Assembly: GCA_015062585.1 (NCBI GenBank)
Contig: SUUJ01000008.1
Span: 2,837-66,836, forward strand
Direction of reading: 5' to 3'
Origin: Alphaproteobacteria bacterium
GTDB taxonomy: Bacteria; Pseudomonadota; Alphaproteobacteria; RF32; CAG-239
Length of the DNA: 64,000 nucleotides
Shown here: in pieces, positions 47,378 through 53,415 of the stretch
Layout of the letters: each line of letters opens with the position of its first letter
Numbering within the stretch: position 1 is the stretch's first letter
Program-made: the position numbers and the translations under genes
The notes under the pieces: generated by a model
Databases searched by the model: none
Seen by the model: only the letters and a program-made list of their open reading frames with translations
Told to the model about the DNA's origin: nothing

Positions 47378-47446
47378 TCATCATTTTGGTTCATTAAAAT
47401 AAGAAAAGCACCCGTTAAGGTGCTTTAATTAAAAAAAAACGATTTA

Positions 47447-47722
47447 CTACTGCTTCTCGTTTATGAGCTCTTCGAGGCGTGTAGTAAGATTGTTGAGGTC
47501 CTCTTCTTGCTCCTTTGTAGCTTTTTCCCAAAGAGGAGTTGTAGACAAAGCCTTCATCTTACCCAAAAGATTTTCAGCCTTCTCTTTGTTGAAGCGGTTT
47601 GCCAGTTGTACGCAGTTTCCTGCAAAAGTCCAAAGACGGAAACTAATTTCACCGGTTTGTTCAAAATAACGGTTTTGCAACTCTACGGCTGCGACAAGAG
47701 TCTTTAATTCAAGCTGTGTCAT
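47447..47722 (-). CDS. hypothetical protein (ORFan)
   Basis: Promoter TTGACT-N17-TATAAT at 47815-47843; start MTQLEL at 47722; terminator at ~47405-47426. Confidence 0.6.
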   Translation of the reverse strand: MTQLELKTLVAAVELQNRYFEQTGEISFRLWTFAGNCVQLANRFNKEKAENLLGKMKALSTTPLWEKATKEQEEDLNNLTTRLEELINEKQ

Positions 47723-47864
47723 AATATTTTTATTAAAAGGTGAATCTATAACTACGCACTGGCCAAAGGCTCTAAAAGACATAATTATAGACATACTGTG
47801 ATTTATCGAATATGATTATACCACATTTCAGAAGTTGAGTCAATTAAGAAAATCAGCGCTTTAT

Positions 47865-48311
47865 CTAAGCATTTTTTCGCAAAATATAATGCGGCATATA
47901 GATCCCCGAGGCATCATATTTTTCTTCACTTATTTTTTCAAAACCAAACTTTGTATATATATGCAATGCAACATCATTGTCGGTTCTGACACCTATACTC
48001 ATAGGTCCGCTATATGTATCTATAATATATTTAATCAATTTTTGCCCGATACCCTGATTATGATATTGCGGCAAAACATAAAGCTGTTTAATTATTTTTT
48101 CTTTTGTGCAATAGCTGATATATCCGACACTTTTATCGCCTTGCTTATAGATATATGTATCAAGGCTCGGATAATTATATGTTATTACCCGTTCATACAG
48201 TTTTTTCCAATCATCATCAGGTAAATCAATGCTTGAGCGCAAAGATTTATCAAATATTACTAACAAATCCGGCCAATCAGAAACAACTGATTTAATTATT
48301 TTTGTTTTCAT
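47865..48311 (-). CDS. GNAT family acetyltransferase
   Basis: QLYVLPQYHNQGIG and N..AL..Y.KFGF; GGAG SD before MKTKII. Confidence 0.85.
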   Translation of the reverse strand: MKTKIIKSVVSDWPDLLVIFDKSLRSSIDLPDDDWKKLYERVITYNYPSLDTYIYKQGDKSVGYISYCTKEKIIKQLYVLPQYHNQGIGQKLIKYIIDTYSGPMSIGVRTDNDVALHIYTKFGFEKISEEKYDASGIYMPHYILRKNA

Positions 48312-48371
48312 TTTTTTTGCTCCGTATTTCAGCAAAAGGGTCGCAATATTCGTTATTTATATAATCTTCTA

Positions 48372-49034
48372 TCATATCGTCAGTTTAACTTCTTTCATGG
48401 TTGAACAAACAGCGATAACGCCTGTATCATAACATTTCTTACGATATTCAGGTGTATCATTACCTTCTGCGCCCACAAATGCAATACTTTTCATTCCGGC
48501 ATCATTGGCGGCCTTAAAATCATTCAAACTGTCACCGATTACAATGCAATCCTGCGGCCTATAACCTTTTGTTTTTGCTGCTAACAAAAATAAATCCGGC
48601 GCCGGTTTTCCATGATTTACCATATCAACAGTAAAATAATCTTCAGGCGACATATATTTTTCAATCCACTTAAACTGTGTCATTTTCCAAGAATGTTGCT
48701 CTTTTGTAGCTCCGGTAGCGATACAATGCTCAAAACGATTATCGCTCATAACATCTTCCACCCCCTCTATCGGTTGCATAAAATGCATTCCTTTATATAC
48801 TTCACCTTCATCAATTTTTTGCATAAAATCTTCATCCAAAATCAAATCAGGAAAATATCTTTCCAAATTTGCTTTTCTGCTTTTGTCAGCAATACCAACC
48901 AACAGATTAAGTTTTTCGTCTTCGGAAAGGGTGATGTTTTTTTCTTTTTTTAATGTTTCGAGCCAAACAGAAACCCACAGCTTTTCGCTGTCAGCAATAA
49001 CTCCGTCAAAATCCCAAATGATTAGCTTGTTCAT
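48372..49034 (-). CDS. HAD family phosphatase (CbbY/beta-PGM-like)
   Basis: WDFDGVIADSE, GKPAPDLF and VIGDS..D motifs; GGAG SD before MNKLII. Confidence 0.9.
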   Translation of the reverse strand: MNKLIIWDFDGVIADSEKLWVSVWLETLKKEKNITLSEDEKLNLLVGIADKSRKANLERYFPDLILDEDFMQKIDEGEVYKGMHFMQPIEGVEDVMSDNRFEHCIATGATKEQHSWKMTQFKWIEKYMSPEDYFTVDMVNHGKPAPDLFLLAAKTKGYRPQDCIVIGDSLNDFKAANDAGMKSIAFVGAEGNDTPEYRKKCYDTGVIAVCSTMKEVKLTI

Positions 49035-49099
49035 ATTTTTCTCCATAATGAATTGCCGAAAGTTTATCATAAGCAATAAAAAAATCAATAAGATGAAGT

Positions 49100-49245
49100 A
49101 AAAGTCTGATAATTGATAAAAAATTACTATTTTCGGAAACATGACAATCGGACTTTGCGTGAAGTAGTAATCGCAACAAAAAAAGCACCTTTCGAGGTGC
49201 TTTTTATAAAATGGTGCACGCCACGATGCAATTATCGGAGTAATC
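49100..49245. repeat. cassette-junction module A (inverted repeat, hairpin, terminator, tRNA-3'-like site)
   Basis: TCTGAT(49105)-N36-ATCGGA, hairpin ttgcg..cgcaa, terminator aagcacct-ttcg-aggtgctt, and TGGTGC(49212)-N16-ATCGGA. Confidence 0.7.
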
Positions 49246-49305
49246 TTAACAATAAAAAACGCCCCGATTTTTGATTGAGGCGTTTGCTATAAAGTATTAA
49301 TATAA

Positions 49306-51306
49306 TCAGTCGTTTGTCTTTTGAAGAACCGCATTAATAGCAGCACCTAATACCTTTTTATCCTCAGCAGAGCGCTTAGGCTTCGTCACTCCTTTTTCCG
49401 GCGAAACATTATCCTTTGCAATTTCGCGCAAAACTTCTGTTTTTTCTGCTTGTCCGTTGTTGGTATCGCCGGCATGCAATTTGCCTTTAACCTTAGCTAA
49501 ATACTTTGCTGTGGCCACTTTTGTTTCGTGATATGTTACAACTTGCGCCGCCGAAATTTTACGATCCGCCGGAACTTGTTGCCATAATGTATAATCCGGA
49601 TCACCATATGAAGTTAAACTCTTAATACCTTGTTTTTCAGGAATCGTATCATCATACACTTTACCTGCCAAACAGATATTTTCTTCTGTGAATGCCTCCT
49701 TAGAATATATCGGACATCCGTTTGATAGTTTTGACTTAAAATCGCTTATCAGTACTGATGTTTCTTCATTATTTCGATGCGATATTTCTGCGTTCTCACA
49801 TGCTTTTAACAAAATTTTTCTTTGTTTTTCCGGTTCTCCGCCGGTATAAATTGCATAGTCTTGCTCTTTCAATTTCTTTAATAATGAAATATTCAAGTTT
49901 CCATTGTCTAGCAAAAGAGTCCCGTCGATATCAACCATAGTTGTATCAACATACAGCATATTCGGATTTTGAATGTATTCTTTCCTTGTTTCATTAAGGT
50001 CTTTTTCTTTTTCACCATTCATATAACCAAGATATTTTCGACATAGAGAAACATGCGGATGTTTTTCCAATACCTTTCTAAAATCTTTTGCGGCCTCAGG
50101 GTACCACTGTACTGATTGCCAATACCCTGCAAAACAGCGGCTATCATTATTAAATTCTTGTCCTTCTTCACATAAGCGTGCTATTTTATCTAAAACGATA
50201 TTGCCTTTTACACGGTTGTCTTTATCTTCCATAAAACCATGCTCATAACAATGACATAACGTATGGACACAATGATCAATATCACCATGTTTACCATAGT
50301 CTAAAAATTCTATTGCCTTATATACATCTTCAACCGACATATCTTCCGGACGATGTTCAAATAGTTTTTGATAATATTCACTATATGCCCTTTTTGCATC
50401 ATAAACAGGAACTTGCGTGTTTCCATATTTAGTTTCAATCGTTATATTCCCATTTGCATCGGGATGTTCAACTTTTCTTTCAACTTCATCATGAAACAAA
50501 CCTCTTTCAACCATTGGTAATATGTCAGATTCTTGTATTTTTGCGCCCAGTTCGACCAATTTATCAACAGCGGCTTCAGTTGAAACTTTTTCAACAAGAT
50601 ATTGGGTATTATCACTCTGTAAACAATAAGCTTTTTCAAACCAATAGTCGTTGTGCAATAAATGAGGTATTTCATTATAATCTAGAGAAAATTTACCGGA
50701 TTTGATAGAGATGTTGACCTCATCAGACGCAGGTTTTATATCAAGGATAGGCATAATCATATCAATTTGCTTGCTGTCATTGCTATGCAAAAACAAGGCG
50801 TAAGCCGCTATTCTTGATTTTTCATCCTCCATATCAATGTAAGGCAGCAACATTTCAGTTGATGCCGCATCTTTAGCCCTAACAAAAGATTTTAAAATAG
50901 CATCTTTCACGGTTGGGTATTCTTTATCCAATTTCGGTAATATTTCTGCAATTTCCGAACTGTTTTTGGCATTAATTAAATCATTGATATTTTGCTTATT
51001 TTCTAAAATTTTTTTAATTGCACGACCGGAACAAGTATCAGGATTAATATTTTCAGTCAAAAATGCTTTTGCCTTATTACTGTCAGTATTACTAAATACA
51101 TTATCTAGAGCTTTTTCAATAGCAAAGATAAATTGATTTTCGTCTTTTTCAAAAACATCAGAAAATTGATTTATTTTTTCCAAGTATTCAGATAAACCAT
51201 TAGGAAATTCATCTTGGCTACGTTTTAATAGTCGTTTTAGTATAAAAACATTAGTTATATGATTAAGTAATTGTGTCTTTCTGTCTTGTTCCATATCATC
51301 AGCCAT
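49306..51306 (-). CDS. large hypothetical protein with a HAD-like DxDGT motif near the C-terminus
   Basis: 666-aa ORF with SD GAGGAG; VDIDGTLL, YTGG and YDD motifs; charged C-terminal tail. Confidence 0.7.
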   Translation of the reverse strand: MADDMEQDRKTQLLNHITNVFILKRLLKRSQDEFPNGLSEYLEKINQFSDVFEKDENQFIFAIEKALDNVFSNTDSNKAKAFLTENINPDTCSGRAIKKILENKQNINDLINAKNSSEIAEILPKLDKEYPTVKDAILKSFVRAKDAASTEMLLPYIDMEDEKSRIAAYALFLHSNDSKQIDMIMPILDIKPASDEVNISIKSGKFSLDYNEIPHLLHNDYWFEKAYCLQSDNTQYLVEKVSTEAAVDKLVELGAKIQESDILPMVERGLFHDEVERKVEHPDANGNITIETKYGNTQVPVYDAKRAYSEYYQKLFEHRPEDMSVEDVYKAIEFLDYGKHGDIDHCVHTLCHCYEHGFMEDKDNRVKGNIVLDKIARLCEEGQEFNNDSRCFAGYWQSVQWYPEAAKDFRKVLEKHPHVSLCRKYLGYMNGEKEKDLNETRKEYIQNPNMLYVDTTMVDIDGTLLLDNGNLNISLLKKLKEQDYAIYTGGEPEKQRKILLKACENAEISHRNNEETSVLISDFKSKLSNGCPIYSKEAFTEENICLAGKVYDDTIPEKQGIKSLTSYGDPDYTLWQQVPADRKISAAQVVTYHETKVATAKYLAKVKGKLHAGDTNNGQAEKTEVLREIAKDNVSPEKGVTKPKRSAEDKKVLGAAINAVLQKTND

Positions 51307-51436
51307 TTTTGTCTCCTCATTTGATATTTTGTTTTACACTAAAACAAAATTTTTAAAATATAATTTAATATTACTATAAAAATAGATTTCTATCAAGTTT
51401 TTTTTGGATTTGTAATACCTGTGTGGCACTGAGTAA

Positions 51437-51728
51437 AAAGTCCGATAGTTTATGAAAAATTGTCGTTCCAAAAATTTATAAAATCGGACCTTATGAAAGG
51501 AGTGGTTTTCATAACAAAAAAACCTCCCCATGGGGCGAGGCAATAAAAAGCCAAAAGTAATTGGCTTTTTATAACGCAGGTTACACTATTGTTAGCTTGT
51601 GAGCGAATGAAATGACGCAAAACAAGCGTTACAATAGAGGTGACCGAAGCGAGTTAGAGAGCGATAGCGAACTTACGAGCAAGAGCTTTTTTAATGGTGC
51701 GCGATAGTTTGCAAGTATCGGAATAACC
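51437..51728. repeat. cassette-junction module B
   Basis: TCCGAT(51441)-N36-ATCGGA, hairpin ttatgaaa..tttcataa, terminator interrupted by a 151-bp element, and TGGTGC(51695)-N16-ATCGGA. Confidence 0.8.
51535..51685. repeat. 151-bp palindromic MITE/REP-like element (copy 1)
   Basis: Identical by eye to 52642-52792; splits the cctccc/gggagg terminator. Confidence 0.7.
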
Positions 51729-51766
51729 GTACGCAAGAATATACAGCATCGGAAAATAAGTTGACG

Positions 51767-52525
51767 TTATTTCTTAATCAAATCAAAAATAATTGAGTAA
51801 CTTTTCTCAATATCAACATCATTCGGATATGCCAAAAGCTTGCTTTGATATAAAATATTGCTCTGAGAATAGTTATACAAATTTTCTAAATTCACGCTTA
51901 AATCTTCTTCTATTTTAAGCATTTGAGCTATAAGTTGGTTAATAAAGCTTTGCCCTAATATGCGATTAATCTTAAAATCTATATCACTCAAATAATTTAG
52001 CATTTTTTCATACTCTATCACGGATAAATGGAACGGATCTAAGCTTTTTCCATTTTCATCAATCATCTCATTTTGCGAGTTCGGAAAAGATAAAATCAGT
52101 CTTCCGCCGTGGGGTAAGATATTATAAAATTTCTCGATAACCGCAAAAGGATTGGGAGTATGTTCTATTGTTTCAAAACTGATAATAGTTGATATACCAT
52201 AATCAGATAAATCTATGTTATTATTTAAATCTGTTTTTATGAATTGTAAATTTTTGCGTTTATAACTTTTGTTTGCTTCTTCTAAGTATTTATCGTTAAT
52301 ATCCGCACCGACAACAAATTTTGCTTTTTGCGCAAGTAAATCGCTTCCATAACCTGTTGCACAAGCAATGTCTGCGACAATATCTTTCTTTGAGATATTA
52401 TCAAGCGCATAAAGATACCGTCCGCAATGTTCAAGTTTCATAAAGAAATTTTGCGGTTTTTTATCAAAAGGATTGCAGAATTCATTATTTGTATAATTTT
52501 CTATCATATTGGCAACATAATCCAA
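51767..52525 (-). CDS. class I SAM-dependent methyltransferase
   Basis: EH..RY.YA, DIACATGYG, ISFETIEH and L..GG.LILS.PN motifs; start may be ATG 52507. Confidence 0.9.
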   Translation of the reverse strand: MDYVANMIENYTNNEFCNPFDKKPQNFFMKLEHCGRYLYALDNISKKDIVADIACATGYGSDLLAQKAKFVVGADINDKYLEEANKSYKRKNLQFIKTDLNNNIDLSDYGISTIISFETIEHTPNPFAVIEKFYNILPHGGRLILSFPNSQNEMIDENGKSLDPFHLSVIEYEKMLNYLSDIDFKINRILGQSFINQLIAQMLKIEEDLSVNLENLYNYSQSNILYQSKLLAYPNDVDIEKSYSIIFDLIKK

Positions 52526-52543
52526 AAATTTTAAAAAATATTA

Positions 52544-52819
52544 AAAGTCCGATAATTGATGAAAAATGGCTGTTTTGAAATTCATAAAATCGGACCTTAT
52601 GAAAGGAGTGGTTCTCATAACAAAAAAACCTCCCAAAAGGGGCGAGGCAATAAAAAGCCAAAAGTAATTGGCTTTTTATAACGCAGGTTACACTATTGTT
52701 AGCTTGTGAGCGAATGAAATGACGCAAAACAAGCGTTACAATAGAGGTGACCGAAGCGAGTTAGAGAGCGATAGCGAACTTACGAGCAAGAGCTTTTTAA
52801 TGGTGCCGCTAGTAAGAAT
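52544..52819. repeat. cassette-junction module C (joins the tRNA-linked repeats)
   Basis: TCCGAT(52548)-N35-ATCGGA, the same hairpin and 151-bp element as B, then the exact 19-bp tRNA 3' end. Confidence 0.8.
52642..52792. repeat. 151-bp palindromic MITE/REP-like element (copy 2)
   Basis: Identical by eye to 51535-51685. Confidence 0.7.
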
Positions 52820-53144
52820 GGGTACTCCCGCTCATTCATTCGCGGGTCCTCCTCGCGTCGTAAGGCTCGCGCTTCATTTTATTTGCGCTTGCCAACTATC
52901 CGCTCCGGACAAGTCCGCTTCTAACTATCCTCAAACCATTAAAAAAAAACCTCCCCAAAGGGAGGCTTTTTTAATGGTGCCGCTAGTAAGAATGGGTACT
53001 CCCGCTCATTTATTCGCGGGTCCTCCTCGCGTCGTAAGGCTCGCGCTTCATTTTATTCGCGCTTGCCAACTATCCGCTCCGGACAAGTCCGCTTCTAACT
53101 ATTCTCAAACCATTAAAAAACCTCCCAAAAGGGAGGCTTTTTAA
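52801..53144 (-). repeat. two tandem tRNA-linked repeats (174 and 170 bp)
   Basis: Units start at 52801 and 52975. Each contains tggtgccgctagtaagaat (last 19 nt of the tRNA) plus a terminator hairpin. Confidence 0.9.
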
Positions 53145-53219
53145 TGGTGCCGCTAGTAAGAATCGGACTTACGACCCCACCCTTACCAAGGGTGTGCTCT
53201 ACCACTGAGCTATAGCGGC
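53145..53219 (-). tRNA. tRNA-Thr(GGT)
   Basis: GCCGCTATAGCTCAGTGGTAGAGCACACCCTTGGTAAGGGTGGGGTCGTAAGTCCGATTCTTACTAGCGGCACCA; 75-nt cloverleaf with encoded CCA. Confidence 0.95.
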
Positions 53220-53241
53220 AAAATAATATTTTTTCTTTTTT

Positions 53242-53415
53242 GTAGAGCACACACCTTAAAGGGTGTGCCTTAGGCATCTAAGCTCGCTTCGTTTGATTGC
53301 CATCTGCACTCGCTCACTAAGATGTTCCAAAGAGCTTGCAGACAAAATTGATATGCCATATCAATTTTACTTAGCGCTACCACTGAGCTATAGCGGCAAA
53401 ATAATATTTTTTCTT
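53242..53415 (-). pseudogene. interrupted 5' partial copy of tRNA-Thr
   Basis: 39-bp direct repeat 53377-53415 = 53199-53237, then a ~110-nt insertion, then GCACACCCTT-TAAGGTG with the anticodon GG missing. Confidence 0.65.

Follow-up and report, generated by a model that had tools for sequence, protein, structure and literature searches.

How three unrelated sets of genes came to lie in a row beside a single tRNA gene, each behind a copy of the same non-coding module and with no intact recombinase gene among them, is the question raised by positions 47865 to 53219 of a 64,000-nt stretch of DNA (the window) from an alphaproteobacterium of the GTDB lineage RF32; CAG-239 (GenBank assembly GCA_015062585.1, contig SUUJ01000008.1). 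A first-pass annotation, made from the sequence alone, had read this locus as an array of gene cassettes anchored at tRNA-Thr(GGT) and stacked in the manner of an integron. Our analysis supports a stack of unrelated cargo units anchored at the tRNA and built by site-specific recombination at its 3′ end. The repeated module is not an integron-like recombination module but is instead a fragment, now a pseudogene, of the large serine recombinase (LSR) gene of the elements themselves. We propose, with a probability of about 85%, that at least three insertions of small LSR elements, all of one family that targets the 3′ end of tRNA-Thr(GGT), have left their decayed remains stacked in the window. 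The source genome (G000 below) is assembled into 20 contigs of 1.5 Mb in total, with 36% GC and a permuted tmRNA, and the metagenome runs that contain the window stretch are from animal gut or faeces according to their run records. Other G-numbers denote congeners, X-numbers metagenome runs and L-numbers fetched loci.

The three modules, the core TGGTGC, the three cargo units and the tRNA of the first-pass annotation were all found in their places, as was the inverted repeat in each module. On the plus strand, the repeat arms are AAGTCTGAT at 49102 and ATCGGAC at 49147 in module A (49100-49211), AAGTCCGAT at 51438 and ATCGGAC at 51483 in module B (51435-51694), and AAGTCCGAT at 52545 and ATCGGAC at 52589 in module C (52542-52800), with a spacing of 35-36 nt. 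The sequence AATGGTGC, which contains the core, is found at 49210, 51693 and 52799, and again at 52973 and 53143. Over 274 nt, modules B and C have 94% identity; module A has only the repeat arms and the core in common with them, and an Rfam search of the modules returned no family at E up to 1. Taken singly, the parts of the module are not rare in the genome, with 65 occurrences of the bare 9-mer against 46 expected and 48 of AATGGTGC against 34 expected. The complete pattern AAGTCYGAT-N33-38-ATCRGAC has only three matches on both strands of the 1.5-Mb genome. Since all three lie in modules A to C, the inverted repeat is not a scattered operator, a finding that the annotation had named as one that would refute its reading.

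The nature of the module was approached from the other side of the core. The conserved left half of many junctions, a stretch of about 75 nt that we call the P arm, encodes on the plus strand from TGGTGC the peptide WCAILC(D/N/E)YR(T/S)(E/N)NY(D/E)D(Y/F)K.L, with its variation at third codon positions and with no start codon in most copies. In the congener G049 the frame of the P arm reaches 13 codons further upstream to give a 50-aa open reading frame (ORF) across the junction (L048:8604-8753), and with this ORF as query 18 longer proteins were matched (E 1e-17 to 5e-8). Two of the 18 carry the Pfam domains Recombinase and/or Zn_ribbon_recom and end in ...KPFDxLLKTPEINKWCxxLCxYRTxNxEDFKxL... 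Since proteins with recombinase and zinc-ribbon domains end in the P-arm sequence, the tail is the C-terminus of an LSR. Tail DNA is present in 32 of the 55 other genomes of the genus. In the window the core is followed on the plus strand by 33 codons of tail at junction B (51695-51796, core included; WCAIVCKYRNN...), which matched the protein P0003 by tblastn (E 2.5e-4), and by 20 codons at junction A (49212-49274; WCTPRCNYRSN...), where the tblastn match was weak (E 0.2-0.7). The motif that junctions A and B share 3′ of the core, already seen in the first pass and found again here, is by its sequence the displaced C-terminal tail of the LSR. A free-standing small gene was considered for the tail and rejected, given the missing start codons and the lack of any meaningful Pfam match; one tail variant in G049 has a Shine-Dalgarno sequence and a GTG start, yet its first 13 codons are also LSR sequence.

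Intact members of the family were found in congeners. A search of the genus with one of the hits (P0007, 329 aa) gave close homologues in which the match ended at residue ~292, the KW before the core. At four of seven loci (in G049, G007, G052 and G057) an ORF of 512-541 aa reads into tRNA-Thr(GGT) and ends KWCR*, and at one locus a 94-aa relic reads into the tRNA. At the other two, the LSR ORF enters the tRNA-end copy of a mini-element (one of the short repeated units described below) and not the tRNA itself, so that LSRs sometimes land on these copies instead. From the way in which the LSR reads into the tRNA and ends KWCR*, the core is placed ~37 codons upstream of the LSR stop, with the result that integration cuts the gene in two. 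The G057 protein has the domains Resolvase, Recombinase and Zn_ribbon_recom, a set of three that P0007 and P0012 contain in part. The G057 element is ~8.2 kb long and carries a C5 methyltransferase-like gene; at one end the LSR body is joined to the tRNA, and the far end consists of flank, TGGTGC and tail, with one older unit beyond. These junctions are of the hybrid attL/attR type, with only AATGGTGC as the core common to attP and attB. The search for a recombinase that accompanies the motif, proposed in the first pass, thus led to an LSR family at tRNA-Thr in congeners, while G000 gave no match (0) to an intact LSR of this family. In the window only the last ~85 LSR codons survive, as relics. 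The earlier statement that there is no local recombinase is therefore correct for an intact gene but not for its remains, since recombinase relics stand at every junction and intact copies at the same tRNA in other species.

These relics are the modules. In an intact LSR gene the arrangement AAAAGTCCGAT...N35...ATCGGACTGC represents the codons KSPIISEKRDILKLILSDC, which lie 93-138 nt before the core. When the 3′ end of the G057 LSR gene was compared with the window by blastn, it matched the module C region (52534-52595) at 78% over 64 nt (E 1e-7) and the module B region (51434-51489) at 74% over 57 nt (E 1e-3), and in G011 a relic in a less advanced state of decay aligned along 112 nt that end at the core (E 2e-14). 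In a multiple alignment, colinearity extends from the first arm as far as TGGTGC, apart from two deletions of ~12 nt, and a hairpin terminator occupies the position of the KPFDELL codons. In module C the LSR 3′-end relic (52542-52600) includes the inverted repeat as KSPII..LSDC and is followed by two hairpin terminators and, at ~52690-52791, by a dispersed repeat (type 4); module B has the same make-up of relic, terminators and type-4 repeat. Module A is the most decayed, with its hairpin terminator at the KPFDELL-coding place; it agrees with the G057 LSR at 65 of 125 aligned positions, with colinear anchors. Judged from these alignments, the inverted repeat is a relic of the LSR codons KSPII...LSDC.

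The attachment sites have a geometry that fits an LSR. The putative attB would comprise the 3′ end of the tRNA (GCACCA, or TGGTGC on the plus strand at 53145-53150) with ~20 nt on each side. The first base of the motif ATCGGAC, counted from the T of TGGTGC, is nt 18 in the tRNA and nt 23 in the tails. For the A118 integrase, the zinc-ribbon-domain motif lies 5 bp nearer the centre in attB than in attP (PMC3783163). The match of TCCGAT to the T-loop of the tRNA, noted in the first pass, stands, and in the light of the 5-bp offset it is best read as the recombinase half-site motif of attB and attP and not as a partial tRNA copy. The offset is visible at the tRNA-side (B) and tail-side (P) half-sites only; the opposite half-sites, B′ in the flank downstream of the tRNA and P′ on the LSR coding side, are not clearly alike. 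By analogy with the half-site numbering of the A118 integrase, the crossover dinucleotide would be the GC of TGGTGC. We envisage the following. Each element would encode an LSR, with the attachment site inside the 3′ end of the LSR gene, ~37 codons before its stop, and the crossover region would be AATGGTGC, the reverse complement of the tRNA's GCACCATT. Since attP would lie inside the coding end, integration would split the gene, such that the LSR body reads into the tRNA (...KWCR*) and the last ~35 codons (WCAILCDYRTENYDDYKQL...) are stranded at the far end of the element. In the window all LSR bodies have been lost, and each unit retains, in plus-strand order, the tail, the cargo and ~140 nt from the end of the LSR gene, which have been reshaped into hairpin terminators.

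The locus is variable both across the genus and among strains. Thirteen loci around murA were fetched from congeners and searched with nine window proteins. All 13 contained murA, and tRNA-Thr(GGT) lay beside it in 12, the thirteenth being cut by a contig end; HAD was found in two and the other seven proteins in none. Relatives carry one to four units of ~1 kb at this place; their ORFs are unrelated and face either way, and each unit is delimited by the repeat arms, the hairpin and AATGGTGC. When 35 junctions were placed in register, left halves (the tRNA end, a mini-element tRNA-end copy or the ~75-nt P arm) and right halves (a mini-element start or a cassette module) were seen to combine freely, with identity breaking at GCACCA. 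The synteny of the distal flank is not conserved, and the outer boundary of the array could therefore not be set; a closing site left of the acetyltransferase gene (GNAT) was sought and none was found, in agreement with the first pass, which had likewise found no fourth site there. At the strain level, contigs from four runs were compared with the window. Joints of low depth with short sides (e.g. 52557 to 49130 at depth 4.9, and 52806 to 51434) were left uninterpreted, and coverage gaps in X9 and X12 that no contig bridges were not used as evidence. A 16.3-kb contig of X12, from a near-identical strain, differs from the window at 19 of 1297 nt across GNAT and HAD and then passes from 49037 to 52540 through 63 letters of other sequence, which means that this strain is without the 666-aa and methyltransferase units and has a module next to HAD. 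A contig of X3 joins 49217 back to 49101, and depth doubles in the same bin; module A may be tandemly duplicated in that population and collapsed in the assembly. The comparison that the first pass had called for has thus shown junction identity ending at TGGTGC, and cargo that differs between relatives and between near-identical strains.

Several observations count against a history of serial integration in its simplest form. A full-length LSR with its own tail attached, which would represent the excised form, was not seen, and the proteins that have body and tail in one frame (P0007, 329 aa, and P0012, 258 aa) are N-terminally short. By itself the similarity of module A to the LSR is weak (52% of aligned positions; tail E 0.2-0.7), and its assignment draws on colinearity and on the intermediates. 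The HAD homology between G000 and G012 stops at the ends of the ORF and not at the modules, and HAD was accordingly rejected as a marker of a whole moving unit. About 10 nt to the left of cores B and C are the tRNA's own downstream flank (GCTTTTTAA), so that these junctions are composite. Modules B and C are alike even in the repeat embedded in them, and independent decay of two LSR genes is therefore insufficient; a duplication step is needed. Nearly all relics begin at AAAAGTCCGAT, which argues for the spread of one truncated ancestral module as opposed to many independent deletions. Together, the likeness of B and C, the common start of the relics and the match to the tRNA flank require a copying step beyond serial integration and independent decay, which could be either Campbell-type homologous recombination between modules or the action of an LSR in trans on units without one.

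The homology, the geometry and the variability are observations, and the route by which the LSR-less units arose and spread would be one of in situ decay, mobilisation in trans or homologous recombination between modules. Shuffling of the units by homologous recombination between modules of 100-290 nt, through Campbell-type circles or DNA taken up from relatives, with the LSR having only seeded the array, is possible if somewhat unlikely. One unit stands between the near-identical modules B and C, as a Campbell-type insertion predicts, the X3 joint with its doubled depth points to a tandem duplication of module A, and the deletion variant in X12 ends at the HAD start and not at the core. Modules of different units are only ~70-85% alike and would be a poor substrate, and the tails at every junction would remain unexplained without prior LSR events. 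We consider it rather unlikely that the LSR-less units are true non-autonomous cassettes, with module, core and tail as their site, which an LSR acting in trans, provided by an intact element at another place or in a different cell, inserts at or removes from the tRNA as circles; this corresponds to the stacking proposed in the first pass. The 5′ boundary of the relic is constant in nearly all units and species, every combination of left and right junction halves occurs, identity breaks exactly at TGGTGC (between B and C, and in G049, where two identical left flanks of 150 nt carry different tails), and in five genomes a Fic-like unit is found among neighbours that differ on both sides, all of which such cassettes would account for. 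A presence/absence joint between strains is indirect evidence for mobilisation in trans. Against such cassettes, G000 has no LSR of the tRNA-Thr family (0 matches), and the left half-sites at the core resemble the tRNA flank and not LSR coding sequence. The circular junctions that the first pass had suggested looking for yielded one candidate contig, of depth 4.9 and with 15 foreign letters, and none that is secure. LSRs, moreover, recombine only attP with attB, and attL with attR needs a phage-encoded factor (PMC3783163).

Two further explanations do without an LSR. That a tyrosine recombinase built the array, whether an integron integrase, a tRNA integrase or XerCD at dif-like sites, could be entertained in view of the classic tyrosine-integrase islands at other tRNAs in the genus (such as tRNA-Lys in G002) and of GGTGCGCGATA after the core, which resembles the XerC arm of E. 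coli dif. It is very improbable. G000 has only two tyrosine recombinases, both Xer-like, no integrase was found near any array examined, and the core is followed by LSR coding sequence; a scan with the arms of E. coli dif gave no convincing partner arm and no clear chromosomal dif. Least credible of all, and close to negligible, is a role of the inverted repeat as operator or promoter of the cargo, with the GCACCA matches due to chance. The repeat does stand upstream of the minus-strand cargo ORFs in the window, but its three genomic occurrences are all in modules, cargo lies in either orientation relative to it in relatives, and it is homologous to LSR codons. Returning to LSR elements at the tRNA, one could imagine a working cassette exchange in which an integrated LSR, switched by the loss of its C-terminal tail, leaves via older tail-bearing sites, gaining or dropping LSR-less units as it does so, while mini-elements restore, after every event, the landing site and the tRNA terminator. 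We think this scheme distinctly unlikely.

Other recombinases in the genus were surveyed as well. The tyrosine recombinases (PF00589) of G000 are one XerC-like and one XerD-like protein encoded on other contigs; 18 of the 56 genus genomes have exactly two, and the extra integrases that were examined all belong to classic tRNA islands elsewhere. One such island, of 5.7 kb with 45-nt tRNA repeats, lies at tRNA-Lys(CTT) in G002 (L042; G002:C13:56000-67000), with a type-2 mini-element outside its distal repeat. No match to the reverse transcriptase, Y1 transposase, IS110 or rve families was found in G000. Its own 516-aa LSR, on contig C16, was rejected as the enzyme of the array: it is without the tail motif, and a non-cassette ORF follows it. 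Small serine invertases resembling Mpi were found in 46 of the 56 genus genomes with the query used, at 0-7 copies per genome, and were also rejected, given that the sole G000 copy (C5:109946-110626) is far from the array, that the family is patchy, and that the same query found none in the array-bearing G033, G006, G018 and G052. In G015 a fragment of such an invertase borders the tRNA-Thr array.

In the window, the order on the minus strand from tRNA-Thr(GGT) (53145-53219, minus strand; ARAGORN, Rfam 70 bits) is terminator, mini-elements Y1 and Y2, module C, methyltransferase, module B, 666-aa ORF, module A, HAD and GNAT. Y1 (type 1; 52981-53144) consists of a terminator, a structured core and a copy of the last 19 nt of the tRNA, and Y2 (52807-52974) is a tandem copy of Y1 at 96% identity, both on the minus strand. 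They form two tandem units of 174 nt between module C and the tRNA which had gone unnoticed in the first pass. The tRNA-3′ copy of Y2 carries the junction to module C, with the core TGGTGC of junction C (52801-52806, plus strand) joining the two. All cargo is on the minus strand. The newest unit would be nearest the tRNA, and it holds a class I SAM-dependent methyltransferase (51767-52525; Pfam Methyltransf_31/11/25, PADLOC mad2 1.8e-14); the next consists of the 666-aa ORF (49306-51306), for which there was no Pfam hit and no family match. HAD hydrolase (48372-49037) and GNAT acetyltransferase (47865-48335) would together form the oldest unit (47865-49037). On the other side of the tRNA, the upstream unit X0 (53237-53399, minus strand) opens with a copy of the first 24 nt of the tRNA and includes a 42-nt copy of the tRNA promoter region. 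It is present in some relatives, and contigs of runs X3, X7 and X9 either bridge it or have other sequence in its place, such that X0 appears to be polymorphic. X0 and the dispersed repeat of ~100 nt within modules B and C had likewise been missed in the first pass.

This dispersed repeat (51585-51684 and 52690-52791; core ...GTGACCGAAGCGAGTTAG...CTTACGAGCAAGA) was also found in G000 on C3, C5, C8 (at 759) and C13, beside tRNA-Pro, Lys, Asp, Asn and Phe, where the copies are in either orientation and adjoin fragments of the local tRNA. A repeat of 59 nt with 80% identity links 48324-48382 with 52456-52514: the first ~17 codons of the methyltransferase (MIENYTNNEFCNPF) appear again as an orphan fragment between HAD and GNAT. 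The 115-aa ORF left of GNAT (47447-47794) may be another variable unit; contigs of X9 and X12 skip over it (47426 to 47741), with a shorter side of only 27 nt.

Mini-elements are not confined to this tRNA. A copy of the gene's own 3′ end lies 150-215 nt downstream of 12 of the 42 tRNA genes of G000, and besides those at 52807-53144 in the window, mini-elements were found beside tRNAs on C3, C5, C7, C8, C10, C12, C13 and C18. Those inspected are units of ~150 nt made up of a terminator, a short hairpin, a conserved core and the last ~19 nt of the tRNA (position 58 to CCA), with at least four types of core. An alignment of 12 type 1 copies from five tRNAs has 27 predicted pairs, of which 12 show compensatory changes, and an Rfam search with the two window copies gave no match. 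An origin of the 19-nt copies by reverse transcription or a guide RNA was rejected, as none of the enzyme families named above (reverse transcriptase, Y1 transposase, IS110, rve) is found in G000, and so was a TnpB omega-RNA, as PF07282 scored over its cut-off in only one of the 56 genus genomes and had no match in G000. A second array lies at tRNA-Pro(CGG) on C5 of G000 (~28.8-35.9 kb), with repeated units of terminator and mini-element and with a 19-nt tRNA-end copy 5,075 nt downstream. It contains a homologous LSR-tail relic with the core GACCA (WSSIIT*FRAENTQEYKQL), in which the amino-acid pattern is kept and the DNA differs from the tRNA-Thr arm, and which represents a second tail type.

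With stacked LSR elements as the preferred reading, what appeared to be an integron without a recombinase becomes a readable insertion history for which the responsible enzyme family can be named. It also accounts for one highly variable site in this genus, whose members are gut alphaproteobacteria with small genomes and otherwise few mobile-element enzymes. The change of the C-terminus upon integration could serve as a built-in switch of direction, and the natural pair of attB and attP with clear half-site geometry may be of use for integrase tools.

The array resembles an integron in the one-sided stacking of short cargo units at a fixed site. It differs in having no IntI and an inverted repeat that is a relic of coding sequence instead of a folded attC, and in relatives the cargo can point either way. 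Stacked units with repeated att sequences, many of them without a recombinase, are well known from SCC and pseudo-SCC at rlmH in staphylococci and from the accretion of CIMEs at ICE (integrative and conjugative element) sites in streptococci; the SCC recombinase Ccr is itself an LSR and can be supplied in trans. Like these arrays, the locus described here has tandem units at one site between att repeats, some without a recombinase. Unlike them, each separator is a recognisable fragment of a recombinase gene, and the anchor is a tRNA. An attP inside a gene of the element, such that integration alters the product, is known for archaeal integrases of the SSV1 type and for integration-dependent immunity in mycobacteriophages. 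Those systems involve tyrosine recombinases or a repressor gene, whereas here a serine recombinase would lose its last ~37 residues.

The closest relatives by enzyme are the LSR elements of the A118, phiC31 and Bxb1 type, with which the family shares a three-domain LSR, a short core common to attP and attB, and hybrid junctions. The outward shift of the half-site motif by 5 bp in attP relative to attB is likewise a feature of the A118 type (PMC3783163). The present elements are unlike these in that they target a tRNA 3′ end, with attP within the recombinase coding sequence and a tail of ~37 aa exchanged for CR*, and in that they are small (~8 kb in G057) and decay into arrays. In a literature search by titles and abstracts, no paper was found on an LSR with attP inside its own gene, nor on this system. 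The history proposed for the window is also reminiscent of the tycheposons of Prochlorococcus, for which a report (10.1101/2020.12.28.424599) describes repeated integration at one tRNA that pushes older elements inward, islands that are left with fragmented integrases and partial tRNAs, and an LSR in 27 of 937 cases. As described there, tycheposons mostly use tyrosine recombinases with partial tRNA repeats as att sites, whereas in the array at tRNA-Thr(GGT) the tRNA and the element have only 6-8 nt in common, and relics of the recombinase gene itself make up the repeats.

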